This document shows positions 1-32,694 of a DNA stretch of 64,000 nt, piece after piece. Source of the stretch: Escherichia phage vB_EcoM_G50; the sequence record NC_054917.1. One strand, written 5' to 3'. The position numbers and the translations under genes are program-made. Each line of letters begins with the position of its first letter. Position 1 is the stretch's first letter. A model generated the notes under the pieces. It was not told where the DNA came from. It saw nothing but the letters and a program-made list of their open reading frames with translations, and did not search any database.

Positions 1-10
1 AGGATTAAAA

Positions 11-1990: not shown

Positions 1991-2006
1991 TACGGTGCAT
2001 TCTAAA

Positions 2007-2024
2007 GGCCTGTTTCGGCAGGCC
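2007..2024 (+). terminator. Hairpin after gene 18
   Basis: GGCCTG-loop-CAGGCC stem directly after stop; no clean U-tract. Confidence 0.3.
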
Positions 2025-2025
2025 A

Positions 2026-2033
2026 TATAAATA
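2026..2033 (+). promoter_or_regulatory. T4-type late promoter motif TATAAATA (gene 19, distal)
   Basis: exact TATAAATA following post-gene-18 hairpin. Confidence 0.5.
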
Positions 2034-2084
2034 CACTATATCCTTAATTCTTTAATTCTATATGCCCTAGGTTAAACATAGGGA

Positions 2085-2092
2085 TATAAATA
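2085..2092 (+). promoter_or_regulatory. T4-type late promoter motif TATAAATA (gene 19, proximal)
   Basis: exact TATAAATA 15 bp upstream of ATG. Confidence 0.5.
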
Positions 2093-2106
2093 CTACAGAG
2101 GCTAAT

Positions 2107-2598
2107 ATGTTTGTAGATGATGTAACACGAGCGTTTGAATCTGGTGATTTTGCTCGACCTAACTTATTCCAAGTAGAAATTTCTTATCTTGGACAAAATT
2201 TTACGTTTCAATGTAAAGCCACTGCTTTACCAGCTGGTATTGTAGAAAAAATTCCAGTCGGATTTATGAACCGTAAAATTAACGTAGCAGGCGATCGTAC
2301 ATTCGATGACTGGACTGTTACAGTAATGAACGATGAGGCACATGATGCACGCCAGAAGTTTGTTGATTGGCAAAGCATTGCTGCTGGGCAAGGGAACGAA
2401 ATTACTGGTGGAAAACCAGCAGAGTATAAAAAGAGCGCTGTTGTTCGCCAATATGCTCGTGACGCTAAAACTGTAACAAAAGAAGTCGAAATTAAAGGCC
2501 TGTGGCCTACTAACGTGGGTGAACTTCAATTAGATTGGGATTCAAACAATGAAATCCAAACCTTTGAAGTAACTCTCGCTCTCGATTATTGGGAATAA
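2107..2598 (+). CDS. 19: Tail tube protein gp19
   Basis: 163 aa, same length and N-terminus as T4 gp19; two TATAAATA motifs upstream. Confidence 0.95.
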   Translation: MFVDDVTRAFESGDFARPNLFQVEISYLGQNFTFQCKATALPAGIVEKIPVGFMNRKINVAGDRTFDDWTVTVMNDEAHDARQKFVDWQSIAAGQGNEITGGKPAEYKKSAVVRQYARDAKTVTKEVEIKGLWPTNVGELQLDWDSNNEIQTFEVTLALDYWE

Positions 2599-2630
2599 AA
2601 TGAATGGGGAGAAATCCCCATCCTGCTTAA

Positions 2631-4255
<1,625 letters not shown>

Positions 4256-4256
<1 letters not shown>

Positions 4257-4501
4257 TGGAAGGTTTAATTGAAGCTATTAAATCAAACGACCTCGTAGCC
4301 GCTCGTAAATTATTTGCTGAAGCCATGGCTGCAAGAACGATTGATTTAATTAAAGAAGAAAAAATCGCTATCGCTCGTAATTTCTTAATCGAAGGTGAAG
4401 AACCTGAAGACGAGGATGATGAAGACGAAGATGGTGATGATAAAGACGACAAAAAAGACAAAGACTCTGACGAAGATGACGAAGACGAGGATGATGAATA
4501 A
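4256..4501 (+). CDS. 67: Prohead core protein gp67 with poly-acidic C-terminal tail
   Basis: 80-aa ORF abutting gene 20; D/E-rich tail ([12 protein letters not shown]...) typical of T4 gp67. Confidence 0.88.
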
Positions 4502-4926
4502 TGCTTCTGATCCCTGAAACTCATGAATTAGTTCTCGAGAATGTCGAAGCACTTATTCCTGAAGCACAGGGTCGCTTTGACGAATTGTCTTCTGCTTTAA
4601 ATAAAGACGATATAAATACAATTGTCGAGAATATGCTTGATGATGAAACTGATTTAGCAGTTGCATTAGCTTCTATTAATGAAAATATGCCGTTAAATGA
4701 ATTCATTGTTAAGCATGTTTCAGCTCGTGGTGAAATTACACGTACTAAAGACCGCAAAACACGCGAACGTAATGCATTTCAAACCACTGGGCTGTCTAAA
4801 GCAAAACGTAGACAAATTGCTCGCAAAGCTACCAAAACGAAGATTGCCAATCCAGCAGGTCAATCTCGTGCTCAGCGTAAGCGTAAAAAAGCTCTTAAAC
4901 GCCGTAAAGCATTAGGATTAAGCTAA
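4501..4926 (+). CDS. 68: Prohead core protein gp68
   Basis: 141 aa, position between 67 and 21 as in T4; basic K/R-rich C-terminus. Confidence 0.88.
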
Positions 4927-5564
4927 TGAATGAACCCCAATTACTAATTGAAACTTGGGGTCAACCTGGCGAAATTATTGATGGTGTGCCAATGCTTGAA
5001 TCCCACGATGGAAAAGACTTAGGTTTAAAACCGGGTTTATACATCGAAGGAATATTCATGCAAGCAGAAGTCGTCAATAGAAATAAACGTCTTTATCCAA
5101 AACGCATATTAGAAAAAGCGGTAAAAGACTATATTAATGAGCAAGTTTTAACTAAACAAGCTCTCGGAGAATTAAATCATCCTCCACGCGCTAATGTTGA
5201 CCCGATGCAAGCCGCTATCATTATAGAAGATATGTGGTGGAAAGGAAATGACGTATACGGACGAGCTCGTGTTATTGAAGGTGACCACGGTCCTGGAGAT
5301 AAATTAGCAGCTAATATTCGTGCCGGATGGATTCCAGGAGTTTCTTCTCGTGGATTAGGTTCATTGACTGACACAAATAAAGGTTATCGTATCGTAAACG
5401 AAGGATTCAAATTAACTGTAGGTGTTGATGCAGTATGGGGTCCAAGTGCTCCAGATGCATGGGTAACTCCTAAGGAAATTACCGAATCACAGACGGCGGA
5501 AGCCGATACAAGTGCCGATGACGCCTATATGGCTCTCGCAGAGGCCATGAAAAAAGCGTTATAA
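4926..5564 (+). CDS. 21: Prohead core scaffold protein and protease gp21
   Basis: 212 aa; sequence recognised as T4 prohead protease; overlapping start with gene 68 stop. Confidence 0.94.
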   Translation: MNEPQLLIETWGQPGEIIDGVPMLESHDGKDLGLKPGLYIEGIFMQAEVVNRNKRLYPKRILEKAVKDYINEQVLTKQALGELNHPPRANVDPMQAAIIIEDMWWKGNDVYGRARVIEGDHGPGDKLAANIRAGWIPGVSSRGLGSLTDTNKGYRIVNEGFKLTVGVDAVWGPSAPDAWVTPKEITESQTAEADTSADDAYMALAEAMKKAL

Positions 5565-5567
5565 ATA
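5560..5567 (+). promoter_or_regulatory. Late promoter motif TATAAATA (gene 22)
   Basis: exact motif overlapping gene 21 stop. Confidence 0.55.
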
Positions 5568-5594
5568 TTATTATCTAAACAACAGGACTACAAA

Positions 5595-6404
5595 ATGCTT
5601 AAAGAACAACTGATTGCTGAAGCGCAAAAAATTGATGCTTCCGTTGCTCTTGATAGTATTTTCGAATCAGTTAATATTTCTCCGGAAGCAAAAGAAACTT
5701 TCGGCACTGTATTCGAAGCTACCGTCAAGCAGCACGCCGTTAAATTAGCTGAATCTCATATCGCTAAAATTGCTGAAAAAGCAGAAGAAGAAGTAGAAAA
5801 AAATAAAGAAGAAGCCGAAGAAAAAGCTGAGAAGAAAATCGCTGAGCAAGCTTCTAAATTCATCGACCATCTTGCGAAAGAATGGCTCGCTGAAAATAAA
5901 TTAGCAGTTGATAAAGGCATCAAAGCCGAACTGTTTGAATCCATGCTTGGTGGATTAAAAGAGCTCTTTGTTGAACACAACGTTGTTGTTCCAGAAGAAT
6001 CAGTTGATGTTGTGGCTGAAATGGAAGAAGAGCTGCAAGAACATAAAGAAGAATCAGCTCGTCTGTTCGAAGAACTCAATATGCGCGACGCATATATCAA
6101 TTATGTGCAGCGTGAAGTGGCATTGAGCGAAAGTACTAAAGATCTGACTGAGTCTCAAAAAGAAAAAGTCTCTGCTCTGGTCGAAGGTATGGATTATTCA
6201 GATGAATTCTCAAATAAATTGAGTGCCATCGTAGAAATGGTGAAGAAGTCTAATAAAGATGAAAGCACTATTACTGAGGGTATAAATACTCCTGATACTG
6301 AAGCAGCCGGACTGAATTTCGTCACTGAAGCTGTAGAAGATAAAACTGCACCTGGTGCAGAAGATATTGTAAGTGTATATGCGAAAGTCGCATCTCGTTT
6401 CTAA
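5595..6404 (+). CDS. 22: Prohead core scaffold protein gp22
   Basis: 269 aa, E/K-rich coiled-coil-like scaffold; T4 length and position. Confidence 0.9.
   Translation: MLKEQLIAEAQKIDASVALDSIFESVNISPEAKETFGTVFEATVKQHAVKLAESHIAKIAEKAEEEVEKNKEEAEEKAEKKIAEQASKFIDHLAKEWLAENKLAVDKGIKAELFESMLGGLKELFVEHNVVVPEESVDVVAEMEEELQEHKEESARLFEELNMRDAYINYVQREVALSESTKDLTESQKEKVSALVEGMDYSDEFSNKLSAIVEMVKKSNKDESTITEGINTPDTEAAGLNFVTEAVEDKTAPGAEDIVSVYAKVASRF
6281..6288 (+). promoter_or_regulatory. Late promoter motif TATAAATA (gene 23)
   Basis: exact motif within 3' end of gene 22, about 135 bp upstream of gene 23. Confidence 0.55.
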
Positions 6405-6422
6405 TTTTAAAGGTTAACACAA

Positions 6423-7988
6423 ATGACTATCAAAACTAAAGCTGAACTTTTGAACAAATGGAAGCCATTACTGGAAGGTGAAGGTTTACCGGAAATTGCT
6501 AATAGCAAACAAGCGATTATCGCTAAAATCTTTGAAAACCAGGAAAAAGATTTCCAGACAGCTCCAGAGTACAAAGACGAAAAAATTGCTCAGGCATTTG
6601 GTTCTTTCTTAACAGAAGCTGAAATCGGTGGTGACCACGGTTACAATGCTACTAACATCGCTGCCGGTCAGACTTCTGGTGCAGTAACTCAGATTGGCCC
6701 AGCTGTTATGGGTATGGTACGTCGTGCTATTCCTAACCTGATTGCTTTCGATATTTGTGGTGTTCAGCCGATGAACAGCCCGACCGGTCAGGTATTCGCA
6801 CTGCGCGCAGTATATGGTAAAGACCCAATCGCTGCCGGTGCTAAAGAAGCATTCCACCCAATGTATGGTCCAGATGCAATGTTCTCTGGTCAGGGTGCTG
6901 CTAAGAAATTCGCTGCTTTGAAAGCAAGTGATACTCTTGAAGTTGGAACTATTTACACCCACTTCTTCCAGGACACTGGTACTGTGTATCTGCAAGCTAC
7001 AGAAGCTAAGCAAATTGATACTAGTGCAACTGACGCAGCTAAATTAGATGCTGAAATTAAGAAACAAATGGAAGCTGGTGTACTGGTAGAAATCGCTGAA
7101 GGTATGGCTACTTCTATCGCTGAACTCCAGGAAAGTTTCAACGGTTCTACCGATAACCCATGGAATGAAATGGGCTTCCGTATCGATAAACAAGTTATCG
7201 AAGCTAAATCTCGCCAGCTGAAAGCTGCTTACTCTATCGAATTAGCACAAGACCTCCGCGCTGTTCACGGTATGGATGCTGATGCTGAACTGTCTGGTAT
7301 TCTGGCTACCGAAATCATGCTGGAAATCAACCGCGAAGTTGTTGATTGGATTAACTACTCAGCCCAGGTTGGTAAATCTGGTATGACCCTGACTCCGGGT
7401 TCTAAAGCTGGTGTATTTGACTTCCAGGATCCGATTGATATTCGTGGTGCTCGCTGGGCGGGTGAATCCTTTAAAGCTCTGTTGTTCCAGATTGACAAAG
7501 AAGCAGTTGAAATTGCTCGTCAGACCGGTCGTGGTGAAGGTAACTTCATTATCGCTTCCCGTAACGTAGTTAACGTTCTGGCTTCAGTTGATACTGGCAT
7601 TTCTTATGCTGCACAGGGTCTGGCTACCGGCTTTAACACTGATACTACCAAGTCAGTATTTGCTGGTGTTCTGGGTGGTAAATACCGTGTATATATCGAC
7701 CAGTATGCTAAACAGGATTATTTCACCGTAGGTTATAAAGGTCCGAACGAAATGGATGCAGGTATTTACTATGCTCCATATGTAGCTCTGACTCCGCTGC
7801 GTGGTTCCGATCCGAAGAACTTCCAACCAGTAATGGGATTCAAAACTCGTTACGGTATCGGTATCAACCCATTTGCAGAATCCGCTGCTCAGGCTCCGGC
7901 TTCTCGCATCCAGAGCGGTATGCCTTCTATTCTGAATAGCCTTGGTAAAAACGCTTACTTCCGCCGTGTATATGTTAAAGGTATCTAA
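6423..7988 (+). CDS. 23: Major capsid protein gp23
   Basis: 521 aa; recognised T4 gp23 sequence; strong codon usage; TATAAATA about 135 bp upstream inside gene 22. Confidence 0.97.
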   Translation: MTIKTKAELLNKWKPLLEGEGLPEIANSKQAIIAKIFENQEKDFQTAPEYKDEKIAQAFGSFLTEAEIGGDHGYNATNIAAGQTSGAVTQIGPAVMGMVRRAIPNLIAFDICGVQPMNSPTGQVFALRAVYGKDPIAAGAKEAFHPMYGPDAMFSGQGAAKKFAALKASDTLEVGTIYTHFFQDTGTVYLQATEAKQIDTSATDAAKLDAEIKKQMEAGVLVEIAEGMATSIAELQESFNGSTDNPWNEMGFRIDKQVIEAKSRQLKAAYSIELAQDLRAVHGMDADAELSGILATEIMLEINREVVDWINYSAQVGKSGMTLTPGSKAGVFDFQDPIDIRGARWAGESFKALLFQIDKEAVEIARQTGRGEGNFIIASRNVVNVLASVDTGISYAAQGLATGFNTDTTKSVFAGVLGGKYRVYIDQYAKQDYFTVGYKGPNEMDAGIYYAPYVALTPLRGSDPKNFQPVMGFKTRYGIGINPFAESAAQAPASRIQSGMPSILNSLGKNAYFRRVYVKGI

Positions 7989-8002
7989 TCTTTGACGATT
8001 TA

Positions 8003-8033
8003 AGGGACCTTCGGGTCCCTTTAGTTGTTTTTA
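8003..8033 (+). terminator. Intrinsic terminator after gene 23 (UUCG tetraloop)
   Basis: AGGGACC-TTCG-GGTCCCT followed by T-rich run. Confidence 0.6.
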
Positions 8034-8036
8034 TGG

Positions 8037-8044
8037 TATAAATA
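8037..8044 (+). promoter_or_regulatory. Late promoter motif TATAAATA (gene 24)
   Basis: exact motif directly after gene 23 terminator. Confidence 0.55.
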
Positions 8045-8071
8045 AATCATATAAACCAAAAGGAAAGCGCA

Positions 8072-9355
8072 ATGGCTAAAATCAACGAACTTCTGCGCGA
8101 ATCAACCACAACGAATAGCAACTCAATCGGTCGCCCAAATCTCGTTGCTTTGACTCGCGCTACCACTAAATTAATATATTCTGACATTGTAGCAACACAA
8201 AGAACTAATCAACCTGTTGCTGCTTTTTATGGTATCAAATACCTTAACCCAGACAACGAATTTACGTTTAAAACTGGTGCTACTTACGCTGGCGAAGCTG
8301 GGTACGTAGACCGAGAACAAATCACAGAATTAACAGAAGAGTCTAAATTAACTCTCAATAAAGGCGATTTATTCAAATATAATAATATCGTTTATAAAGT
8401 ATTAGAAGATACACCATTTGCTGATATTGAAGAAAGCGATTTAGAATTAGCTCTTCAGATTGCAATTGTTCTTTTAAAGGTTCGTCTATTTTCTGATGCA
8501 GCATCAACAAGCAAATTTGAAAGCTCTGATAGCGAAATTGCGGATGCTAGATTCCAGATTAATAAATGGCAAACCGCAGTTAAATCTCGTAAACTTAAAA
8601 CTGGCATTACAGTTGAATTAGCACAAGATTTAGAAGCAAATGGATTCGATGCTCCTAATTTCTTGGAAGATTTGCTTGCAACTGAAATGGCGGATGAAAT
8701 CAATAAAGATATTCTGCAATCTTTGATTACAGTATCAAAACGCTATAAAGTTACAGGAATTACTGATACTGGATTCATTGATTTGAGTTATGCATCTGCA
8801 CCTGAAGCTGGTCGTTCATTATACCGAATGGTGTGTGAAATGGTTTCGCATATCCAAAAAGAATCAACTTATACTGCAACGTTCTGTGTTGCTTCAGCTC
8901 GTGCCGCTGCGATTCTTGCTGCATCAGGTTGGTTAAAACATAAACCAGAAGATGATAAATATCTTTCACAAAATGCCTATGGGTTCTTAGCTAATGGTTT
9001 ACCGCTTTATTGCGATACTAACAGCCCATTAGATTATGTAATCGTTGGCGTAGTAGAAAATATTGGTGAAAAAGAAATTGTCGGATCAATTTTCTATGCT
9101 CCGTATACAGAAGGTCTTGACTTAGATGACCCTGAACATGTAGGTGCATTTAAAGTTGTAGTTGATCCAGAAAGCTTACAACCATCTATCGGTTTATTGG
9201 TTAGATATGCTTTATCTGCAAATCCTTACACTGTAGCAAAAGATGAAAAAGAAGCAAGAATAATTGATGGTGGAGACATGGATAAAATGGCGGGTCGTTC
9301 AGATTTGTCTGTTTTATTAGGTGTTAAATTACCAAAAATTATCGTTGATGAATAA
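8072..9355 (+). CDS. 24: Head vertex protein gp24
   Basis: 427 aa, gp23 paralog at T4 position; late promoter motif and terminator hairpin flank it. Confidence 0.93.
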   Translation: MAKINELLRESTTTNSNSIGRPNLVALTRATTKLIYSDIVATQRTNQPVAAFYGIKYLNPDNEFTFKTGATYAGEAGYVDREQITELTEESKLTLNKGDLFKYNNIVYKVLEDTPFADIEESDLELALQIAIVLLKVRLFSDAASTSKFESSDSEIADARFQINKWQTAVKSRKLKTGITVELAQDLEANGFDAPNFLEDLLATEMADEINKDILQSLITVSKRYKVTGITDTGFIDLSYASAPEAGRSLYRMVCEMVSHIQKESTYTATFCVASARAAAILAASGWLKHKPEDDKYLSQNAYGFLANGLPLYCDTNSPLDYVIVGVVENIGEKEIVGSIFYAPYTEGLDLDDPEHVGAFKVVVDPESLQPSIGLLVRYALSANPYTVAKDEKEARIIDGGDMDKMAGRSDLSVLLGVKLPKIIVDE

Positions 9356-23254: not shown

Positions 23255-23288
23255 TTATTATAACACAACACGAGGGACTTGTAAACTA
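23255..23288 (-). promoter_or_regulatory. Early promoter (sigma70-type, extended -10)
   Basis: minus-strand GTTTACA, 17 nt, TGTTATAAT. Confidence 0.6.
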
Positions 23289-25343
23289 CATTTTGAACTT
23301 TTTAGACATTCCGTTGATGTTAACCAAAGAAGCCAAGATTTGAGAAACTTCGTTTTCCTCTTCTTTTGATTCTTCTACAAGGAATTGATTAAATCCAGCC
23401 ATTGGACGAACTTCACCAGTTTCCATCAGATGATCGCCATCATATACCGATTCTTCTAATTGTTCAGAAGGAGGAACGATTGTGCCTTCGATTAAATACT
23501 TGTTATAAGCAGTTTCTTTCATCATGTACGTGCTCACTTTATTAATCTTCAGCAAAATTCCACGCGGTAAAATAACTTCAGCTTCTGATGGAAATCCTGA
23601 TAAATGACCTGGAACGATAACTTTGATTCGCTCAGCTCCTTTTATTACCATACCTACGCTAGTTTCAGCATCTTCATTAGCATATGCGGAATGACTACCC
23701 GTATGCATTAAATCTTCAGCATCAACTGAACCTTCTCCTTCACCAGAAAATACTGCACTGGAATCATCTAGGGCCATATAGTTTTTACCATACTCACCGA
23801 AGATATTTGGTTTAAGCGATGTGGATACGAAGTTCTTGAAATAGAACATTTTATTTTCAATATTATGACGTAAAGTTTTAAAGGTAACTTCTTGTCCACG
23901 GTAAAGTGTAGTTCCTGGAGGAAGAACTGATCCTTTGGCAAAGGCAGAATCCATTGTCTCGATGTGTTTAATAGCTCGTTCCATGTATTCTTCACGGGTA
24001 GAATCTGGTTTACCCAAGAGGAACGAGTTCATTTCAACATATGAATCTGCACAATAATCTTCAATTACATCGGACTCAGCCTGAGTTAATCCTTTTGGGG
24101 GTACTTCAGTACTTGCATATTCATACGCTTGAGAAGCAGACTCATTAATCAATTTATAAATGCCATTCATGACAAATTGAATAATAGCTACCTTTTCATC
24201 TGGCGTGGCTTTAGAACCTTTAACTAAATCATTGACAATTTTCTTAATAACATCAAAGCTATTAGAAATATTAATGTCAGCGAGATCGCTTAAAATTTTA
24301 TCAGTTTTATAATCAAAAAATTCTTTATTCTTTAAATATTCCTGAGAACCTTGATATGTTATATCGCTCTGTAACTTGATAGATGGATCACGTAAACGTG
24401 CATGAGCCAATGCAATATGATTTCGGAAGCTTTCTAATTCATAATCGCTAGATTTAAAACGAGAAGCACTTCTCATACCACCGATAGCTCCTTTGCTGAA
24501 GTTTGAACCAACCTGAATAACGCCAGAGTTCATTGGTCCTTCTGCTTTATATACCGGAACTTTAGATTCAAACTCTTGATATTTCTTAGCAGCGAAGCTA
24601 TCACCCTGAAGTGAAGCATCGACAGTAGAATATTGAGCTTGTGCTGCTAATCGACGACTAATTTTAGTTTTCTGAATAACAGCTTGATCCGTACGCTTAT
24701 CATTTTCTAAAGCAATAGAAGCAGCAACAGCAACAGCTTTAGGAACAGCATTACCTGTTTTAACGTCTACATAAACATCACCAACCTTTGATTCAACCTT
24801 TGTGAATAACTCAGTTGAAATAGGAGGTACACCTGGAATGTCTTCTAAATTGGCATTTTTACGGTAAACCATAATATATGTGTACTTTTTATCGTAATCC
24901 CAGATTTCCTTTAAAAGAACATATCGACCTGCTCCTTTAGTACGCACTAAACGATCGGCAATAACTTGCATTTGACGAGCTGCACCGTTTGTTTTACTCT
25001 TTAATACGCGGAATAGGCATGCGTCAATTTTGTACTGTTTCATTGTCTGAAGAGCAGTATCAAAAACCGCATTAATGACACCAATTGGATTTCCACCTAA
25101 GTTTTTAAGTTTAACTAATGATAGTTTCTCATTAACGCCTATCATTACGATATGCATCATTTTATCGCCTGGCTTAACGTTTTTATTTGTATCACCGCCA
25201 GAGGTGTATGTACAAAATCTAAATCCAGGAAGCACACTTTCTTCACCGGCTTGAATAGCAAAAATTTGAGGTATTTTATGCTTAGGATTTAAGTTAACAA
25301 CCGGCGCCGAAGCGCCGTCAAATAATTCTGTAATAAGTTCCAT
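23286..25343 (-). CDS. Alt-like ADP-ribosyltransferase, second tandem paralog
   Basis: 685 aa; N-terminal third clearly homologous to adjacent Alt (MELITELFD...); C-terminal ART-like signature LYRGQ, FVSTSL, EAEVILPRG; starts 4 nt after alt stop. Confidence 0.8.
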   Translation of the reverse strand: MELITELFDGASAPVVNLNPKHKIPQIFAIQAGEESVLPGFRFCTYTSGGDTNKNVKPGDKMMHIVMIGVNEKLSLVKLKNLGGNPIGVINAVFDTALQTMKQYKIDACLFRVLKSKTNGAARQMQVIADRLVRTKGAGRYVLLKEIWDYDKKYTYIMVYRKNANLEDIPGVPPISTELFTKVESKVGDVYVDVKTGNAVPKAVAVAASIALENDKRTDQAVIQKTKISRRLAAQAQYSTVDASLQGDSFAAKKYQEFESKVPVYKAEGPMNSGVIQVGSNFSKGAIGGMRSASRFKSSDYELESFRNHIALAHARLRDPSIKLQSDITYQGSQEYLKNKEFFDYKTDKILSDLADINISNSFDVIKKIVNDLVKGSKATPDEKVAIIQFVMNGIYKLINESASQAYEYASTEVPPKGLTQAESDVIEDYCADSYVEMNSFLLGKPDSTREEYMERAIKHIETMDSAFAKGSVLPPGTTLYRGQEVTFKTLRHNIENKMFYFKNFVSTSLKPNIFGEYGKNYMALDDSSAVFSGEGEGSVDAEDLMHTGSHSAYANEDAETSVGMVIKGAERIKVIVPGHLSGFPSEAEVILPRGILLKINKVSTYMMKETAYNKYLIEGTIVPPSEQLEESVYDGDHLMETGEVRPMAGFNQFLVEESKEEENEVSQILASLVNINGMSKKFKM

Positions 25344-25346
25344 GAT

Positions 25347-27440
25347 TTATCCTTGAACGAACTTGTAAGGCATGTTTGTAATATCTATGCAAGACGCAAT
25401 AATTCCAAGAGATGATTCTACTTTCTGTTTAACATTTGATGAAACAAACGATGCAAAGTCAACTCTGTCTTCTATTTCAATATCATCTGTCATTGCAACT
25501 ACTTCACCGGTTTCCATTAGACGGTCACCGTCATAAATGACTGATTCGGTGAGCTCTTCTGTAGTCATAACTTCAGCTTGAATGAGTTTTGTATTATTAG
25601 ATGTTGTTCCGTCATTATTAGAAGCATCAGTTATTTTATTAACTTTGACCATCAATCCGCGTGGTAGAATAACTTCAGCTTCTGTTGCTATTCCGAGACT
25701 TCCTGGATATACAACATTAACTTTATGAGCTCCATCAATTGCCCATCCTATTTGAACTTTAACGTATTCAGGATTTTCTTTATACGCTCTTATTTCGTTT
25801 GGATTAATAGTTATTCCTTCTTCATTTTTATCAACTGTTAATTCATTACGAGCTTCTGGTTCTAAAAGACCAATACCAGCATGCGTAATTCCAAAACGTC
25901 CAAAAATGATAGGAGTTAAAGAAGTAGATACAAAATTTCTGAAATAGAACACTTTATTTTTAACTAGCGCTTCGTATATAGGAGCAGTCATACTTTGAGC
26001 ACGATAAACTGTAATGCCTTCTGGTATACGGTCACCATTTTCAAAAGCTGAATCTAAATTATTTATCGCAGATTCAATTTCTTTTTCACTCATTACATCA
26101 TATCGTTCTGGATTGTAGCGGCCTAAAAGAAGATTATTGATGTCAGTATATCCTGATCCACAATACTCTCTAATGCCGCGCTTTTGTGATGGAGTATATT
26201 TAGAACCATCACGGGCAATAGTAATATCAATCATTGGACCTGCACCAATTCCAGAAAAGCTATAAATCATTCGTTTGAGGAATTTAGTTTTTGCTGCGTT
26301 CCAGGAATTTTTAGTTATTTCTTCCCAGACTTCATCTGGCTGTCCTTTACGGGTTTTATTATGTTTATCAAGCCAATTATCTTTATATTCTTCAAAGAAT
26401 TGATTAACAGCTGCTGCGTATTTCTCTAAACATTTTATTGAAGTGGTTGGTTCATTTTTAATCGCATTAAGAATTACATCTTTAATTTTTTCAGAAACTT
26501 CATTAACCTCACTTTTTGAAAAGAATTTATAGTCATAGTGAAGTTCATCTGCGGTTCCTTCGGCAATGATTTTTGCTGCCTTAGTTTTAGAAGCTAATGA
26601 ATTAATTCCAAGCTTCATTTCTTCTGCTTCGGGAATTAAAGGAGCTGTAGCAGGTTTATTGAAATTAGCTGCGGTAGATTCATATTTCTGGAATAATTCA
26701 CTTTCAAATCTAGAAGATTCCAATGACTGACTTTGCGCAATTGCTCTACGGGAAATTTTAACTTTAACGATTACAGCTTGGTCAGAACGTTTATCGTTTT
26801 CTTGCGCAATAGATGCCGCAATTGCCTCATTTTTAGTTACTTGAGCTCCAGTATCTTTATTGATATAAACATCGCCGACTTTCGATTCAACTTTAGTAAA
26901 GAGCTCGGTACTAATTTCCGGAACTCCTGGAATGTCTTCTAGTGATACATTTTTGCGATGTATAAGAATATATGCATACTTTTTATCGTAATCCCAGAGT
27001 TCCTTAAGAAGGACGTATCTGCCACCTGAACGACTGCGGATAAGTCTATCAGCAATAACTTGAATTTGTCGAGCTTGACCAGCAGTTTTAGACTTAAGAA
27101 TACGAAGCATACAGGCATCAATTTTATACTGACGCATCGTTTGCATCGCAACAGTAAAAACTGAATTGATGTAATTAATTGGGCTTGGACCGAGACCTTT
27201 CAATTTAGCAATTGAACCTTTAGCAGTTAATGTAAAAGGAACAATGTGCATCATTTTATCGCCCATCTTTAGATCACGGTTAGTATCACCTCCAGATGTA
27301 TAGGTACATAAACGAAAGCCTGGTTGTTCAATTGCGTCATCAACATGAACTGAAAAAATTTGCGGTATTTTCTTCTTTGGATTTAAGTTTGTAATCGGAA
27401 GAGTAGTATCTTCGTCAAATAATTCTGTAATGAGTTCCAT
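25347..27440 (-). CDS. alt: Alt ADP-ribosyltransferase (packaged RNAP-modifying enzyme)
   Basis: 697 aa from second ATG (MELITELFDEDTTLPITNL... recognised as T4 Alt; first ATG at 27443 has too-short SD spacing); ART signature VYRAQ, FVSTSL, EAEVILPRG; TATAAATA late promoter upstream. Confidence 0.87.
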   Translation of the reverse strand: MELITELFDEDTTLPITNLNPKKKIPQIFSVHVDDAIEQPGFRLCTYTSGGDTNRDLKMGDKMMHIVPFTLTAKGSIAKLKGLGPSPINYINSVFTVAMQTMRQYKIDACMLRILKSKTAGQARQIQVIADRLIRSRSGGRYVLLKELWDYDKKYAYILIHRKNVSLEDIPGVPEISTELFTKVESKVGDVYINKDTGAQVTKNEAIAASIAQENDKRSDQAVIVKVKISRRAIAQSQSLESSRFESELFQKYESTAANFNKPATAPLIPEAEEMKLGINSLASKTKAAKIIAEGTADELHYDYKFFSKSEVNEVSEKIKDVILNAIKNEPTTSIKCLEKYAAAVNQFFEEYKDNWLDKHNKTRKGQPDEVWEEITKNSWNAAKTKFLKRMIYSFSGIGAGPMIDITIARDGSKYTPSQKRGIREYCGSGYTDINNLLLGRYNPERYDVMSEKEIESAINNLDSAFENGDRIPEGITVYRAQSMTAPIYEALVKNKVFYFRNFVSTSLTPIIFGRFGITHAGIGLLEPEARNELTVDKNEEGITINPNEIRAYKENPEYVKVQIGWAIDGAHKVNVVYPGSLGIATEAEVILPRGLMVKVNKITDASNNDGTTSNNTKLIQAEVMTTEELTESVIYDGDRLMETGEVVAMTDDIEIEDRVDFASFVSSNVKQKVESSLGIIASCIDITNMPYKFVQG

Positions 27441-27463
27441 CATATCCTCTCTAGTGTTTATTC

Positions 27464-27471
27464 TATTTATA
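27464..27471 (-). promoter_or_regulatory. Late promoter motif (alt)
   Basis: TATAAATA on minus strand about 20 bp upstream of alt start, consistent with Alt being a packaged late protein. Confidence 0.5.
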
Positions 27472-27476
27472 AAATT

Positions 27477-27494
27477 AAAGGCCCGAAGGCCTTT
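27477..27494 (-). terminator. Hairpin between ligase operon and alt
   Basis: AAAGGCC-CGAA-GGCCTTT perfect palindrome; UUCG loop on minus strand. Confidence 0.4.
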
Positions 27495-27681
27495 AATAAT
27501 CTAATGGTAAGAGAGTACGATATATTTCAAACTTTGGACCTTTTTCATAGGCATCAAATGTTTCTGTGAATTTATTATAAGCATATGCATCTATAAATTC
27601 AATCATAATTTGTGATACAGAAGTAGAAACATCTCCACCTTCTTTTTGAGCAACGACAATTGTTTCTAAGTAAGCTTTCAT
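27493..27681 (-). CDS. Hypothetical protein between ligase and alt
   Basis: 62-aa ORF, overlaps gene 30 stop by 4 nt. Confidence 0.5.
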   Translation of the reverse strand: MKAYLETIVVAQKEGGDVSTSVSQIMIEFIDAYAYNKFTETFDAYEKGPKFEIYRTLLPLDY

Positions 27682-29141
27682 AGACCAGTTACCTCATGAA
27701 AATCACCAAATACATCCTCGAATGTATTAGCTTTAGTTTTATCTTCACGTAAACGAATCGCAATCGGAAGAAATAATTTAACGTAATCAGTGCGGCCATC
27801 AGATTTTAACCAACCGTTGCATTCGCACTCTAGAATTTTTCCAATATAATAATTTTGGTTTTCCATAATGCGAGTACGGTCAAGTTCATGCGATTTTACA
27901 CCGGCTTTATCTTTTAAGCCTGAACCTGCATTTACTTTAATTTTTCCACACTCTGATTCAAGAATAAATCCACCAGCTTTAGTAGGGTCTTTACGGTGAG
28001 GATAAATTCCTACAATTTTTAAATCAACATCAATTACTTCTTTAAATTTATAGAGATTTTTTGAACGAGCATTTTCCCACAATCCGTCGGTATTTTTGAG
28101 AATAATACCTTCAAAACCTTGGTCAATATATTTTTTATAAATTACCTTAGCTTCATCTAGGTTATTTACTACTTGGTTTTCAATTAAAATTACTTTATCA
28201 TATCCTGATGTCATTTGTTCTAGTTTAGAAAAACGTACATCATATTTTAAACGAAACGCCGGAAGACCGTATATTTCTACCAACGGGACATAATCCCAGA
28301 CCTGAAACTTCATGCATTTGGCTTCTTTTTCGGAAATGGTTCCTTTTAAGGATTTATTAGCGATTCCATTAGAAGTAGTACGAGATTCCGCTACTTCGGC
28401 GAATTCTTTAGCTTTACTAATTTCAGGATAAGCATCAAAAAGAAAATCTAGGCCTTCTGGTTCCTTTTTAACTTGCTCATGGTATACCAATTCGCCATCA
28501 ATTAACACACCTTCTGGATGAATCTGGCGGGCTTCAGCAGTCATTTTGATTAATTCTTCCTTAAGAAGATCTAATCCTAGATATTCATTACCAGCTCGTG
28601 ATAAAAGACGAACATCATCTAATTCATCACCTCGAACTTCAGCAAAACACCGAGATCCATCTGCTTTTAACTGTGCAAAAGCTGGAAACTTGATATTCTT
28701 ACTAATGCCTTTTTCATCATAAGAACTTGCCAGCATTTGAGGTTGTTCAGGAATTAAACCTGGCCAAACTTTGTTTGCAATAGATACTGAAGCACCGCAT
28801 TCAAGGTCTCGCATCATCACTCGACGCAAAACTTCAACATCATCCTTTTTACCATCGGTGATATATCCAGTCAATTCCTCAATTGCAGCATTTCCAGTCA
28901 ATTTCCGAGTAGCTAACGTGAATTCAATGAAGTCAAGCATATCGGTAATAGTCAGCATTCCAAAACTCTGGGTAGCAATACCAGGTTTAGGCCATTTCTT
29001 TATATAATACTGTAACCCACGAGAATAAGTCAGACGATATACCCGTTTAAGCAATTCATTATCTTTATTCTTTTCAAGAATTGCTTGCTTCTGCTTAGTT
29101 GATCCAATAGATGCTATTTCATTCAGAATTTTAAGAATCAT
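27678..29141 (-). CDS. 30: ATP-dependent DNA ligase gp30
   Basis: 487 aa, T4 length; adenylation lysine motif region (AQLKADGSR) and recognised N-terminus MILKILNEIASIGS. Confidence 0.95.
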   Translation of the reverse strand: MILKILNEIASIGSTKQKQAILEKNKDNELLKRVYRLTYSRGLQYYIKKWPKPGIATQSFGMLTITDMLDFIEFTLATRKLTGNAAIEELTGYITDGKKDDVEVLRRVMMRDLECGASVSIANKVWPGLIPEQPQMLASSYDEKGISKNIKFPAFAQLKADGSRCFAEVRGDELDDVRLLSRAGNEYLGLDLLKEELIKMTAEARQIHPEGVLIDGELVYHEQVKKEPEGLDFLFDAYPEISKAKEFAEVAESRTTSNGIANKSLKGTISEKEAKCMKFQVWDYVPLVEIYGLPAFRLKYDVRFSKLEQMTSGYDKVILIENQVVNNLDEAKVIYKKYIDQGFEGIILKNTDGLWENARSKNLYKFKEVIDVDLKIVGIYPHRKDPTKAGGFILESECGKIKVNAGSGLKDKAGVKSHELDRTRIMENQNYYIGKILECECNGWLKSDGRTDYVKLFLPIAIRLREDKTKANTFEDVFGDFHEVTGL

Positions 29142-29407
29142 TGTTCATCCTTCAGAGTTTGATTTACAGCTCTATTATAAATCAATTCATCATTAAGCTC
29201 AGGCAAAGACTTATGATATGTAGTTCTAACTTTATTTCCTTGCATCCAGTGCTTGACATAAATGAAACCTTGCTCTACACATTTTTTAAAAATTCGTTCG
29301 TCTTTTTGAGCTCGGAATTCTGGATTGCATCTAAAAAATTGATTTACGTGACCGTAATCACGTGTAGTATTACCTTCATTTTCATAAATAGTGTGAACGA
29401 CAAACAT
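29138..29407 (-). CDS. 30.1: Hypothetical protein (T4 30.1 position)
   Basis: 89-aa ORF overlapping ligase start; positional. Confidence 0.55.
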   Translation of the reverse strand: MFVVHTIYENEGNTTRDYGHVNQFFRCNPEFRAQKDERIFKKCVEQGFIYVKHWMQGNKVRTTYHKSLPELNDELIYNRAVNQTLKDEQ

Positions 29408-30270
29408 TAGAATGCTCCTTGGAAAATATTATCACCACTAGTAAATCTATTAAAATACCCTGCATCGCCAGGCTTGGTATAACTCCACGTATGGAATGGA
29501 TTCATATGATATGGGTGTGTATAATATGGATTATATGGATGTGTATAATATGGATTATACGGATTAAATCCAGGAGTTCTCCAGGTAGTGTTCCAACGAA
29601 AAGAATCGTTTTTAACCATCTTCTCAATTACATCTTTTATAGCTTTTTCACTATCAAAACTTTCTTTATTTTCCTTTGGTGAAAAAAGCTTATTTTCTAC
29701 ATCATTCCATGTATAAACTCGCTGAGCGGTTTTTGGAATATTGTCACGCTCTCCTCGCGCCATCCAATAAACAGGAACATTTAATATTTCACTCGCATGA
29801 TCGCAATGGTGAGCGAGATCGTCAATGTAACAAATTACGTTATATTTCTCTTTTGCCTTTTTGAACAACTCTTCTTTTGAAGAATCATGACCACACATCA
29901 TTACTTCTGAGAAGGCACCAGGAAAAAGAGCATTCAAATTAAATTGACGATTCAACAGAGCGTCAATAGAATCACCCAATGCTGTAACAGCTACAAAATT
30001 ATAATCTTCTTTTAATTTGTTAATTACACACAGGGCATCTTTATACGGAGACAAATAACGAATAAAATCTGAACGATTGTATTTTTCAATTAACTTGACG
30101 CCAAGTTCTTCATCACAATTAAAGAGTTTACCTGGAGAAATAAATTTCTCATCTTGGATCATTTTTAAAATATGTTCTAACGGAAGATTATATTTCTGAG
30201 CAAAATAAGGAAGGCCTGATTGCCAGCTTAAACATACTCCATCAATATCAGTTAAAATAGTAGGCTTCAT
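29407..30270 (-). CDS. 30.2: HAD-like hydrolase candidate with Tyr/Pro-rich repeat tail (T4 30.2 position)
   Basis: 287 aa; N-terminal ILTDIDGV resembles HAD motif I (DxDGx), later YIDD; C-terminal NPYYTHPY tandem repeat. Confidence 0.65.
   Translation of the reverse strand: MKPTILTDIDGVCLSWQSGLPYFAQKYNLPLEHILKMIQDEKFISPGKLFNCDEELGVKLIEKYNRSDFIRYLSPYKDALCVINKLKEDYNFVAVTALGDSIDALLNRQFNLNALFPGAFSEVMMCGHDSSKEELFKKAKEKYNVICYIDDLAHHCDHASEILNVPVYWMARGERDNIPKTAQRVYTWNDVENKLFSPKENKESFDSEKAIKDVIEKMVKNDSFRWNTTWRTPGFNPYNPYYTHPYNPYYTHPYHMNPFHTWSYTKPGDAGYFNRFTSGDNIFQGAF
29512..29559. repeat. 24-bp tandem repeat (2 copies, 2 mismatches) at 3' end of 30.2
   Basis: tgg(g/a)tgtgtataatatggattata x2; encodes NPYYTHPY repeat. 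Confidence 0.85.
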
Positions 30271-30731
30271 AGAGAGTCTCTTAATAGATTTAACACATCA
30301 ATAAATTCAGCTTCGGTTAGTATTGTATCATCTTTTGTTAGACCACTAGCCATGCTGTGCTTCAAAACTTTTCCTTTCGAGGCTTGTAATGCATCGCGAA
30401 AGCCCTTGTTTTGGAACGCTGCTTCAAAATATGCATTTGTGTATAATTCTTTCCATGCTTCGGAATATCTTGAAAACGGAGTTCCAAGCCAGAACAACGT
30501 GCCACGGTCCTGAGCTCTTGCATAAGACCTTCCAGCTTGTTGGGCGGCAAGCCCGGATAACCCAAATATACGACGCTGTTGTTCAACATTTTTCACCTTG
30601 CATCCTTGGAGGAATCCTTCGAGACCTCCAAATTGGATACCATCCATAACAAAAGGCCATTGGGCGAAATTACTTAATGCACATGATGGCCATCTAAAAT
30701 TGCTTCTAATCTCTAACTCAGACATTTTCAA
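30267..30731 (-). CDS. 30.3: NADAR (YbiA/DUF1768)-like protein (T4 30.3 position)
   Basis: 154 aa; pattern ALSNF...DGIQFGGLEGFLQGCK matches the conserved core of NADAR/YbiA-family proteins as I recall them. Confidence 0.65.
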   Translation of the reverse strand: MKMSELEIRSNFRWPSCALSNFAQWPFVMDGIQFGGLEGFLQGCKVKNVEQQRRIFGLSGLAAQQAGRSYARAQDRGTLFWLGTPFSRYSEAWKELYTNAYFEAAFQNKGFRDALQASKGKVLKHSMASGLTKDDTILTEAEFIDVLNLLRDSL

Positions 30732-30924
30732 TACTTATAATTTCAACATCAGCCCAATGACCATAGCAAGGAAGACGAAATTCAACTGGCCAGTTAGGGT
30801 CCTTTTCTAATATAATAGACTGAACTTGTGGCTCTTCATGTTCATCGGTATACGGACCTTTATACGTTACTTTATATGTGACCTTAATGTACTGAATTCC
30901 AAAAATCTTATTAATTATATTCAT
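30718..30924 (-). CDS. Hypothetical protein (30.x region)
   Basis: 68-aa ORF in tight operon array. Confidence 0.5.
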   Translation of the reverse strand: MNIINKIFGIQYIKVTYKVTYKGPYTDEHEEPQVQSIILEKDPNWPVEFRLPCYGHWADVEIISIENV

Positions 30925-31118
30925 ATTAATTCCTTTAATCCATAGATAGGAGATAATTCATCACCCATACGAAGGTCTTCATTTCCATCTACCCAGGAAA
31001 CAATATAAGCCTCTTTTATTTGAATACCACTCCATTTAAATGGAGGTAGAACCTTAGAAATTAATCCAGGTATACCAACTCCCTTTAATTCAACAGTTTG
31101 ACCTAAAAAGAATTTCAT
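30921..31118 (-). CDS. Hypothetical protein (30.x region)
   Basis: 65-aa ORF, stop/start overlaps with neighbours. Confidence 0.5.
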   Translation of the reverse strand: MKFFLGQTVELKGVGIPGLISKVLPPFKWSGIQIKEAYIVSWVDGNEDLRMGDELSPIYGLKELI

Positions 31119-31405
31119 TAAAACCTCATCTGAAAACCGTGCGATTTAACATTACCGCCGCCAATATCAGAAATATTAATTTCGCGCGCAATTGAAGGGT
31201 CAATGTCAATTTCACGATTGAGTTTAGTAATAGCTAGAGTATCACGCCCATTTACAGTACGGAACTCTAAAGGGCAGACTACATTAACGTAGTTTTTAAT
31301 TGATTCACTGGTAGGTTGCAAATGAGCAGGAAGGTCTTTAGGTGCCTTAGAGAAAACCACTTCACAGAAATTTTTGCGGGTATCAAAATAAGTAGTCATA
31401 AACAT
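31118..31405 (-). CDS. Hypothetical protein (30.x region)
   Basis: 95-aa ORF preceded by SD gagga. Confidence 0.55.
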   Translation of the reverse strand: MFMTTYFDTRKNFCEVVFSKAPKDLPAHLQPTSESIKNYVNVVCPLEFRTVNGRDTLAITKLNREIDIDPSIAREINISDIGGGNVKSHGFQMRF

Positions 31406-31421
31406 AGTATTTTCCTCAGTA

Positions 31422-31445
31422 AGGGGCCGAAGCCCCTCATTTTAT
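31422..31445 (+). terminator. Plus-strand-oriented hairpin plus T-run inside minus-strand gene block
   Basis: GGGGCC-GAAG-CCCC followed by TCATTTTATTTT on plus strand. Confidence 0.4.
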
Positions 31446-31446
31446 T

Positions 31447-31812
31447 TTAAATATCAAATTCGTTAAGAACTACATCAAAGATCGCTTCAAGATGCTCAGG
31501 TTTAGCTCTGTTACTCAGAATATGACGAATCCAAGTTTTAACCAGAAGCTTACGATTGACGCCATTCCAGCAAGGATGAGTACCTAAATCGCGTTGACGG
31601 AAATCATCATCTAATGCGATTTTAAAAGAAGAACCTTCTTTCGTGATTGAAACCGTGATGCCATTTTCAAATCGCATATAAACGTAGTTAGGAGTCATAT
31701 ACTGTTCAATTTCGCATACTGATCCATTTTGATGTTTCCAAAGGCAGATAGTATCAATAGAACCTGCAATACCATTAGAAACATATTTACGTTCAAAGTT
31801 GATGTAGTTCAT
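31447..31812 (-). CDS. Hypothetical protein (30.x region)
   Basis: 121-aa ORF. Confidence 0.6.
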   Translation of the reverse strand: MNYINFERKYVSNGIAGSIDTICLWKHQNGSVCEIEQYMTPNYVYMRFENGITVSITKEGSSFKIALDDDFRQRDLGTHPCWNGVNRKLLVKTWIRHILSNRAKPEHLEAIFDVVLNEFDI

Positions 31813-31880: not shown

Positions 31881-32213
31881 TTATTTTACTACTTTCCAAT
31901 GTTGCATGTCAAGTTTACCAACTTTTTTCATCTTCTCAATTAAGCGTTCGGCACGTTGGCGGGCTGTAACATAATACCATTCACCCAATTCATTTTGTTC
32001 AATTTTTCCAACGATTACTGTATTCAATTCATAAATCCAACCAGTAAAGAAATTATGAACTTGAATTGTAAAGGTGAAATCTGTTCCCATACCTTCTGTT
32101 GTTTCTACTTCAATAATATCACCTTCAACTGCCATTAAGAACCACATAGTTTCATCATATTTACCATTGAAGCATTTAGTTTTAACTGTAGCGTTCAGAT
32201 TAATCGTTTTCAT
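31881..32213 (-). CDS. Hypothetical protein (30.x region)
   Basis: 110-aa ORF with early promoter-like sequence upstream. Confidence 0.6.
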   Translation of the reverse strand: MKTINLNATVKTKCFNGKYDETMWFLMAVEGDIIEVETTEGMGTDFTFTIQVHNFFTGWIYELNTVIVGKIEQNELGEWYYVTARQRAERLIEKMKKVGKLDMQHWKVVK

Positions 32214-32273: not shown

Positions 32274-32323
32274 TTTATGCAATCTTTGGAAAATAAAAAA
32301 GGACTCCCGAAGGAGTCCTCAAC

Positions 32324-32500
32324 TTATGCTTTCTGCTTACCAAAACGAGAAGCATCATCTCGAAGAACCGCACGTGCTCGGCGCATGATCTTCTCAACAG
32401 TTTGATTGATACGAGAGTTCGACCCACGCTTGTAACCAGCGCGTTTAGAATCACCAACTTTCTTTTCAACTGCTTTCTTTGCTTTAGCTTGTTTTGCCAT
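32324..32500 (-). CDS. Small highly basic protein (possible nucleic-acid binding)
   Basis: 58 aa from ATG 32500 (MAKQAKAKKAVEKK...); track ORF extends upstream through a hairpin so the shorter start is preferred; K/R about 30 percent. Confidence 0.5.
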   Translation of the reverse strand: MAKQAKAKKAVEKKVGDSKRAGYKRGSNSRINQTVEKIMRRARAVLRDDASRFGKQKA

Positions 32501-32694
32501 TATAAATTCTCTTTTAAATGAAAATGCAGGACTTATTGGCATTGCCTGCGAAAGCCCTCAAGGGGTACTTAGGTTTTGAATATTTACCGACAGGATAACC
32601 ATAAACCTCGTCAACATTCAAGAGGTACACCGTAAAACAAAGTTCGACGGCTCCTCGTTTTAACTTCACACTAAGGCAGTGACTCTCCAATAAA

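Follow-up and report, generated by a model that had tools for sequence, protein, structure and literature searches.

Genes 30.3 and 30.2 of a T4-like Escherichia phage: a probable ortholog of the NADAR protein AdfN and an adjacent HAD phosphatase-like protein

This study concerns genes 30.3 and 30.2 of Escherichia phage vB_EcoM_G50, which lie in the window, the whole stretch of 64,000 nucleotides that was analysed (sequence record NC_054917.1). Taking the two genes together, we are highly confident that gp30.3 is an ortholog of T4 AdfN, an eraser of guanine-linked ADP-ribose, and that gp30.2 is a phosphomonoesterase of the HAD superfamily close to the nucleotidases. For gp30.3, the homology, the NADAR fold, the intact catalytic triad and the intact C-terminal helix are directly observed, whereas its activity as an enzyme and its phenotype against DarTG1 would be carried over from the T4 protein. 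The AdfN role of gp30.3 has already been published: the protein was predicted to be a NADAR years ago, its activity in vitro was reported in 2024 and its defeat of DarTG1 in 2025. gp30.2 is a HAD phosphatase-like protein, which is uncharacterised but is not a new kind of protein.

The early operon around genes 30.3 and 30.2

The region 27400-31500 matched 703 phage records, almost all of which are T4-like phages of Escherichia, Shigella or Yersinia, with Shigella phage vb_GEC_SH_GT as the top match (98.8% identity). The gene order on the minus strand is that of T4: cd, 31.2, 31.1, 31, rIII, 30.9 through 30.4, 30.3, 30.2, 30.1, 30 (DNA ligase), alt.1 and alt. The window is therefore a Tequatrovirus (T4-like) genome. 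Genes 30.3 and 30.2 are located in an early operon, upstream of the DNA ligase gene and about 2 kb from two paralogs of the Alt ADP-ribosyltransferase, and the two minus-strand reading frames (154 and 287 aa), the ligase gene and the two Alt-type genes on which the original prediction was built are all found where it had placed them (Table 1). The real start of 30.3 is the ATG at 30725, two codons downstream of the TTG, because this start fits both the annotation of T4 and the residue numbers E36 and K43 given in the literature. The ATGA in which the stop codon of 30.3 overlaps the start codon of 30.2 suggests translational coupling of the two genes. A scan for promoters and terminators across the operon gave no excess over the shuffled expectation. 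The two Alt paralogs are full-length and 40% identical to each other, and both contain the ART domain PF03496 (Pfam, E = 2.7e-20 and 1.8e-37), whereas T4 contains one alt gene and the remnants alt.-1 and alt.-2.

Table 1. Coordinates of the features discussed in the text (positions in the window).
Feature	Position	Strand	Assignment or basis
Gene 30.3 (adfN), phage-type NADAR, 152 aa	30267-30725	-	Predicted DNA guanine-ADP-ribose glycohydrolase
30.3, mechanical ORF, 154 aa, TTG start	30267-30731	-	
Gene 30.2, whole ORF, 287 aa	29407-30270	-	
Gene 30.2, HAD-fold phosphatase core, residues 1 to ~196, with C1-type helical cap	29683-30270	-	
Gene 30.2, C-terminal tail, ~90 aa, with one short helix followed by a hypervariable, predicted-disordered segment rich in Tyr, Pro, Trp and Phe	29407-29682	-	
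24-bp tandem repeat, 2.3 copies, coding the duplicated NPYYTHPY unit of the gp30.2 tail	29509-29564	.	Tandem Repeats Finder
ATGA, 30.3 stop overlapping 30.2 start	30267-30270	-	Direct sequence reading
Gene 30.1 (DUF3045), between 30.2 and ligase	29138-29407	-	Pfam PF11243, E=5.6e-63
Gene 30, ATP-dependent DNA ligase	27678-29141	-	Synteny with T4
Tandem Alt-type ADP-ribosyltransferase paralogs, 685 and 698 aa	23286-27443 (23286-25343; 25347-27443)	-	PF03496

Across viral loci, the gp30.2-type HAD gene is accompanied most constantly by ligase and less constantly by the NADAR gene. Of 80 loci built around a gp30.2 homolog, 58 contain ligase and most also contain alt, whereas a gp30.3-type NADAR gene was found within 4 kb in only 27. 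When 80 loci were centred on the gp30.3-type NADAR gene instead, the HAD gene was found in only 24, all of which are T4-like and contain ligase too. The primary association of gp30.2 according to these counts is therefore with ligase. Furthermore, at least seven other T4-like genomes (for example contig 2974666281) have a distance of 55-60 kb between the NADAR gene and the HAD-ligase-alt block. The NADAR gene is surrounded there by small genes without known function, and the neighbours compared with PHROGs all belong to families of unknown function. The proximity of 30.3 to alt is taken as a genomic neighbourhood rather than as a writer/eraser circuit or a conserved module, and these distant genes argue against the dedicated cluster of ADP-ribose writers and eraser that had been envisaged.

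gp30.3 and the NADAR superfamily

The string ALSNF...DG...EGFLQ..K, from which a resemblance to NADAR proteins had originally been noticed, is found in gp30.3 as CALSNFAQWPFVMDGIQFGGLEGFLQGCK. It is not a chance match, since the protein belongs to the Pfam family Phage_30_3 (PF08010) with an E-value of 7.8e-69 (230 bits against a cutoff of 36). Searches with gp30.3 itself gave no match to Pfam NADAR (PF08719), even at E<=1, no NADAR match in a direct NCBIfam scan and nothing in a single-sequence search of the PDB. The absence of a significant match to Pfam NADAR/DUF1768, which had been named in advance as refuting the assignment, is literally what was found for gp30.3; it does not refute homology, because the phage NADARs have their own Pfam family. 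Linking gp30.3 to NADAR takes profile-profile or structural methods. A family profile searched against the PDB placed YbiA first, although weakly (E=0.046), and the comparison of a 42-sequence gp30.3 profile with E. coli YbiA by hhalign gave a probability of 95% and an E-value of 3.9e-8 over 108 columns, with the SNF and E-x-x-F/L-Q-x-x-K motifs in register and with E36 and K43 of gp30.3 aligned to the SEHYFQAQK motif of YbiA. As a sequence bridge between the two families, five of 41 sampled gp30.3 family members also match PF08719. The family is large, as an exhaustive profile search returned 1,458 clusters at 50% identity.

The structural comparison leads to the same superfamily. The fold search places gp30.3 among NADAR proteins, with the α+β fold of YbiA/NADAR in which a helical core is flanked by small β-hairpins. 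In the AlphaFold2 model (pLDDT 82), H123 is located in the last strand (residues 120-124) and the C-terminal helix (residues 138-151) is present. The catalytic residues sought by alignment are in place, with E36 and H123 invariant and K43 nearly invariant among 42 diverse family members. Judged from alignment and model, gp30.3 is thus a member of the NADAR superfamily with the predicted catalytic Glu and Lys conserved in E-x-x-[FL]-Q-x-x-K. The suggested NADAR-like nature of the protein is borne out by the fold search, by the profile-profile match to YbiA and by these residues, and for the T4 protein it has been shown experimentally (PMC11125620, PMC11825919).

NADAR structures have been solved and the hydrolysis of guanine-linked ADP-ribose has been demonstrated (Schuller et al. 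2023, PMC11543638). The catalytic Glu/Lys pair is E43/K50 in PnNADAR and E36/K43 in T4 (PMC11543638, PMC11825919), and the residue in the last strand is Glu in YbiA-type, Asp in DarT-linked and His in phage NADARs (PMC11543638); gp30.3 has His at this position, in contrast to the Asp of DarG1 and the Glu of YbiA. DarG1-type and stand-alone NADARs (8bat, 8bau; PMC11543638) contain an N-terminal extension, whereas gp30.3 is a bare core domain without it. Unlike DarG1, the phage NADAR is encoded without a partner toxin gene and is no antitoxin in uninfected cells. E. coli YbiA (2b3w), an N-glycosidase of the NADAR superfamily, belongs to a subfamily other than that of gp30.3, is found in a housekeeping or SOS-operon context and does not rescue DarT1 toxicity (PMC11125620).

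The closest known relative is T4 AdfN, which gp30.3 resembles in gene position, in E36/K43/H123 and in the intact C-terminal helix. The two proteins are identical at 148 of 152 residues (97%), with all 152 aa aligned and no truncation, and the four substitutions of this phage are T82, E89, F104 and M125 (V, P, I and I, respectively, in T4). Phage NADARs were named 'gp30.3 proteins' in a study in which T4 gp30.3 reversed the ADP-ribosylation of guanine in vitro and left that of thymidine in place (Toxins 2024, PMC11125620), and 'phage NADAR' has since been listed as one of four NADAR families, with the T4 enzyme used again (2026, PMC12945103). The resistance of T-even phages to DarTG1 was mapped to gene 30.3, which was renamed adfN (Johannesman et al., Nat Commun 2025, PMC11825919). 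In the same study, purified AdfN stripped ADP-ribose from DarT1-modified DNA and both E36A and K43A impaired the protein. The adfN allele of RB69 was reported to be frameshifted, without the last helix and inactive, the C-terminal helix being required (PMC11825919); we also found the RB69 30.3 allele to be shortened (414 nt), whereas gp30.3 here keeps helix 138-151. The protection of phage DNA from DarT-type toxins, one of the two roles originally predicted for 30.3, is exactly the published role of AdfN (PMC11825919), and the experiments that were proposed with it have already been carried out on the T4 ortholog (PMC11125620, PMC11825919).

By analogy with these results, gp30.3 would act as a single-domain phage-type NADAR, made early in infection, that cleaves the N-glycosidic linkage of ADP-ribose to guanine by hydrolysis. 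The ADP-ribose put on the phage DNA by host DarT1 in the course of DarTG1 defence would be removed, replication would resume and gp30.3 would behave as an orphan copy of the DarG1 antitoxin. The T4 protein was unable to neutralise DarT1 in uninfected cells, and it fully rescued RB69 but only slightly rescued T5 or Bas25 (PMC11825919); the in vivo mechanism is therefore incomplete, and the authors suggest that AdfN perhaps needs an additional T-even protein (PMC11825919).

The HAD core and variable tail of gp30.2

The N-terminus of gp30.2 is MKPTILTDIDGV, which contains the DxDG motif, and the four HAD motifs are D8-x-D10 (motif I, DxD), T96 (motif II, S/T), K132 (motif III, K) and D150-D151 (motif IV, DD). 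Among 24-38 homologs, D8, D10 and K132 are invariant, and conservation is complete or at least 90% at T96, D150 and D151. The further invariant residues W16, S18, Y64, S67, R108, N111 and R172 suggest a defined substrate pocket. In the AlphaFold2 model, residues 1 to ~195 (pLDDT >90) form a Rossmannoid HAD core fold, and four helices inserted between motifs I and II make up a C1 cap. The HAD-like character that had been read from the DxDGx start is thus supported by the conserved motifs, by the modelled core and by the structural matches, and the Tyr/Pro-rich repeat tail noticed at the same time is also present.

No Pfam or NCBIfam model was matched by gp30.2, the threshold of PF06941 (NT5C) not being reached, and single-sequence PDB searches returned either nothing or chance-level matches only. 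The best match of the family profile in the PDB was the 5'(3')-deoxyribonucleotidase 2jao (E=0.008). In a viral structure library, the named matches, which follow uncharacterised orthologs, are mostly '5' nucleotidase' or HAD-type proteins, and in PHROGs the protein belongs to phrog_420 (unknown function), with a weak match to polynucleotide kinase. Compared with the 5'(3')-deoxyribonucleotidases (Pfam NT5C; 3bwv, 2jao, 6g2n), gp30.2 is about 21% identical to the closest structure and, unlike them, ends in an additional disordered tail, about 90 aa long and rich in aromatic residues and proline. It is a widespread protein of the Straboviridae (1,438 phage records), which is named 'hypothetical protein' in almost all database entries and occasionally '5' nucleotidase' or 'HAD'; a literature search for the name gp30.2 returned no paper, and a broader search for 30.2 and HAD returned only noise. 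T5 Dmp, a phage 5'-dNMPase according to the annotation of the T5 record, has a DLDGT motif and no Pfam match. It was rejected as a functional anchor for gp30.2, because no relationship between the two was found outside motif I (hhalign probability 1.6%).

In the HAD classification, C1-capped enzymes act on small-molecule substrates, and DNA-end phosphatases are capless. A small phosphomonoester is favoured over a DNA end for gp30.2 because the model is C1-capped, and a nucleotide-type substrate is likely because the closest structures are 5'(3')-deoxyribonucleotidases. The downstream gene 30.2, probably coupled to 30.3 in translation, thus encodes a Mg-dependent phosphomonoesterase of the HAD superfamily with a C1 cap. 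Its fold and motifs are directly observed; its substrate, as inferred from the model and from these relatives, would most probably be a small phosphorylated compound, for example a nucleotide.

Model confidence is low from about residue 228, with a pLDDT below 50 at residues 250-287. The tail contains NPYNPYYTHPYNPYYTHPYHMNPF, which derives from the 24-bp tandem repeat (score 98, 93% matches), and it differs from the T4 tail by a 30-nt gain through repeat expansion and a 3-nt loss, both in frame. About 60% of 101 gp30.2 homologs have a tail of 40-130 aa that consists of 20-30% Trp/Tyr/Phe/Pro and is essentially unalignable, and the remaining homologs end right after the core. The aromatic/proline-rich disordered tail thus appears to evolve quickly by repeat slippage, and one may speculate that it serves as a docking segment. 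A motif near the C-terminus resembling G-I-E-Y-L-x-R-Q-P-T is common to 17 of the 101 homologs; it reads GIEYLYNRPT in T4 and has diverged to AGYFNRFT in this window. The idea of GIEYL-x-RQPT as a clamp- or partner-binding peptide found no support and, as the motif has diverged here, was set aside.

Alternative roles and the meaning of the gene pair

The second role originally offered for 30.3 was the trimming of Alt-made modifications. The proximity of the gene to two alt paralogs would fit an enzyme that erases the modifications made by the phage's own Alt, ModA and ModB on host proteins or RNA, but we regard this as very improbable. Alt modifies host proteins such as the α-subunit of RNA polymerase (PMC9503650), whereas all activities described for NADARs in the papers cited here are on base-linked ADP-ribose of nucleic acids and not on protein side chains, the substrates being guanine-linked ADP-ribose and, for some families, cytidine (PMC11125620, PMC11543638, PMC12945103). 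Moreover, the DarTG1 phenotype is a full explanation for adfN in T4 (PMC11825919), and the at least seven other T4-like genomes mentioned above carry the NADAR gene far from alt. A different proposal, made by Iyer et al. for phage NADAR and Macro domains (PMC9503650), is that the main substrates of gp30.3 are small-molecule derivatives of ADP-ribose (immune signals or by-products of RNA repair, for example) rather than DNA adducts. The genes around one gp30.3-type NADAR-NT5C fusion (P0134, contig L164), which include ARH, RtcB, phosphatase genes and a further NADAR, are in keeping with this idea, which nevertheless seems quite unlikely in view of the published removal of ADP-ribose from DNA by the T4 protein in vitro and of its DarTG1 phenotype (PMC11125620, PMC11825919). 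The removal of guanine-linked ADP-ribose from phage DNA is therefore preferred for gp30.3.

For gp30.2, another reading is that of a ligase-associated, DNA-end-healing 3'-phosphatase, similar to the HAD domain of polynucleotide kinase/phosphatase (Pnkp), that prepares nicks for gp30. This seems unlikely, as the model contains the four-helix C1 cap, which DNA-end phosphatases do not have, and as nucleotidases, not Pnkp, come out best in the structural and profile comparisons. There is also little likelihood, in our estimate, that gp30.2 and gp30.3 form a two-enzyme module in which the HAD protein is the T-even-specific helper of AdfN or processes the released ADP-ribose or nucleotide product. 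Besides the ATGA overlap and the adjacency of 30.2 and 30.3 in Tequatrovirus and relatives, such a module would be consistent with three rare bacterial proteins (P0134, P0140 and P0247) in which a gp30.3-type NADAR is fused to a C-terminal NT5C-type HAD. On Pfam NT5C, P0134 reaches 61 bits (cutoff 24.8) and P0140 lies at the borderline, and P0247 falls into one cluster with these two. The contig of P0134 is the one mentioned above, in which the ARH is an ADP-ribosylglycohydrolase and the phosphatase-like genes are two in number. The fused HAD shares with gp30.2 the unusual motif DxDxVLVx[FW]QSGL (hhalign E=8.5e-5), although the hhalign probability is only 60%, and when the gp30.2 HMM was compared with the regions outside NADAR in multidomain members of the gp30.3 family, only P0134 was matched, marginally. 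In addition, RB69, which is rescued by ectopic AdfN, has an intact 30.2, and an extra T-even factor is possibly needed by AdfN (PMC11825919). Against the module, the fusions amount to only three of the 150 listed gp30.3-family representatives, NADAR is fused to many unrelated domains as well, and two of the three fusion contigs (those of P0140 and P0247) have no ADP-ribose context. The locus counts given above (NADAR in 27 of 80 HAD loci, HAD in 24 of 80 NADAR loci) also weigh against it, the HAD gene being far more constantly linked to ligase (58 of 80). Because of the NADAR-HAD fusions, the shared motif, the ATGA overlap, the intact 30.2 of RB69 and the suggested T-even factor, gp30.2 can be named as a candidate partner of AdfN, while the preferred description is that of a HAD phosphomonoesterase near the nucleotidases.

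In conclusion, the window contains an intact 30.3 allele that is probably functional, judging from its T4 counterpart, and this phage is therefore predicted to resist DarTG1. The substrate of gp30.2, once found, would fill a gap in the map of T4 early genes, and might be relevant to the question of why AdfN is fully effective only in T-even infections.

Domain architectures in the gp30.3 family

Many members of the gp30.3 family, at around 290 aa, are composed of two tandem NADAR domains, as found in the representatives P0123, P0125, P0126, P0138 and P0210, and the matching PHROGs profile, phrog_652, extends over 296 positions, with the T4-type gp30.3 aligning to its C-terminal half only. In other members of the family, the fusion partners are LRR_5, GDSL lipase, ASCH, DUF6939 and further domains. 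A NADAR–NT5C fusion, P0134, is encoded on the metagenomic contig L164, on which ADP-ribose and RNA-repair genes are densely packed (see the table). T4 gp30.3 consists of 152 aa, whereas the construct of it described in the published methods comprises 'residues 1-208' (PMC11125620); this mismatch may reflect a tag or a discrepancy in numbering. Gene 30.3 also encloses a second ORF; its T4 equivalent carries the annotation gp30.3', as the product of translation within the gene in another frame.

Positions of the features in the window and on contig L164
Feature	Position	Strand	Remarks
Tandem full-length Alt ADP-ribosyltransferase paralogs (two)	23286-25343, 25347-27443	-	PF03496 in both; 40% identity
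alt.1, 62 aa	27493-27681	-	Between alt and ligase; overlaps ligase stop
75-aa ORF	30362-30589	-	Wholly within gene 30.3, different frame
Sigma-70-like promoter match, 11/12	31883-31912	-	Just upstream of 30.7
Strong terminator-like hairpin	32299-32320	-	Just inside 3' end of 30.9-position ORF (32324-32542)
L164, ADP-ribose and RNA-repair gene set	1-8851		DUF1810, ADP-ribosylglycohydrolase, 344-aa NADAR, Phage_30_3 fragment
L164, same gene set (continued)	1-8851		PTP-NADK-like gene, low-molecular-weight phosphatase
L164, same gene set (remainder)	1-8851		Metallopeptidase-like gene, RtcB, NADAR–NT5C fusion P0134

A recurring motif in the gp30.2 tail

Within the last 20 residues of gp30.2, the motif G-[IVLT]-E-Y-L-x-[RNY]-Q-P-T is present in 17 of the 101 homologs, from several genera and including P0048, P0058, P0061 and the T4 protein; in the gp30.2 of the window it has diverged. 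Despite this recurring C-terminal motif, the remainder of the tail could not be aligned across the homologs.

Organization of the operon and its flanks

The promoter match and the hairpin may bound a transcription unit from 30.7 to 30, in a scan of the operon in which the overall counts of promoters and terminators were no higher than the shuffled expectation. Downstream, the window carries two full-length Alt paralogs, whereas T4 has one alt together with the decayed duplicates alt.-1 and alt.-2. The adjacent alt.1 matched the Pfam family PF24647, 'Phage blade protein' (E = 6.9e-29 in the Pfam scan), a surprising label for an early-region gene. In the T4-like Escherichia phage Ge15 (PP359696.1), the match to the 30.x/ligase operon spans approximately 6.5 kb, rather than 4.1 kb, and the transposase features InsC and InsD are annotated under this span; the longer span and these features suggest that an IS element has been inserted in the ligase/30.x region of this phage.
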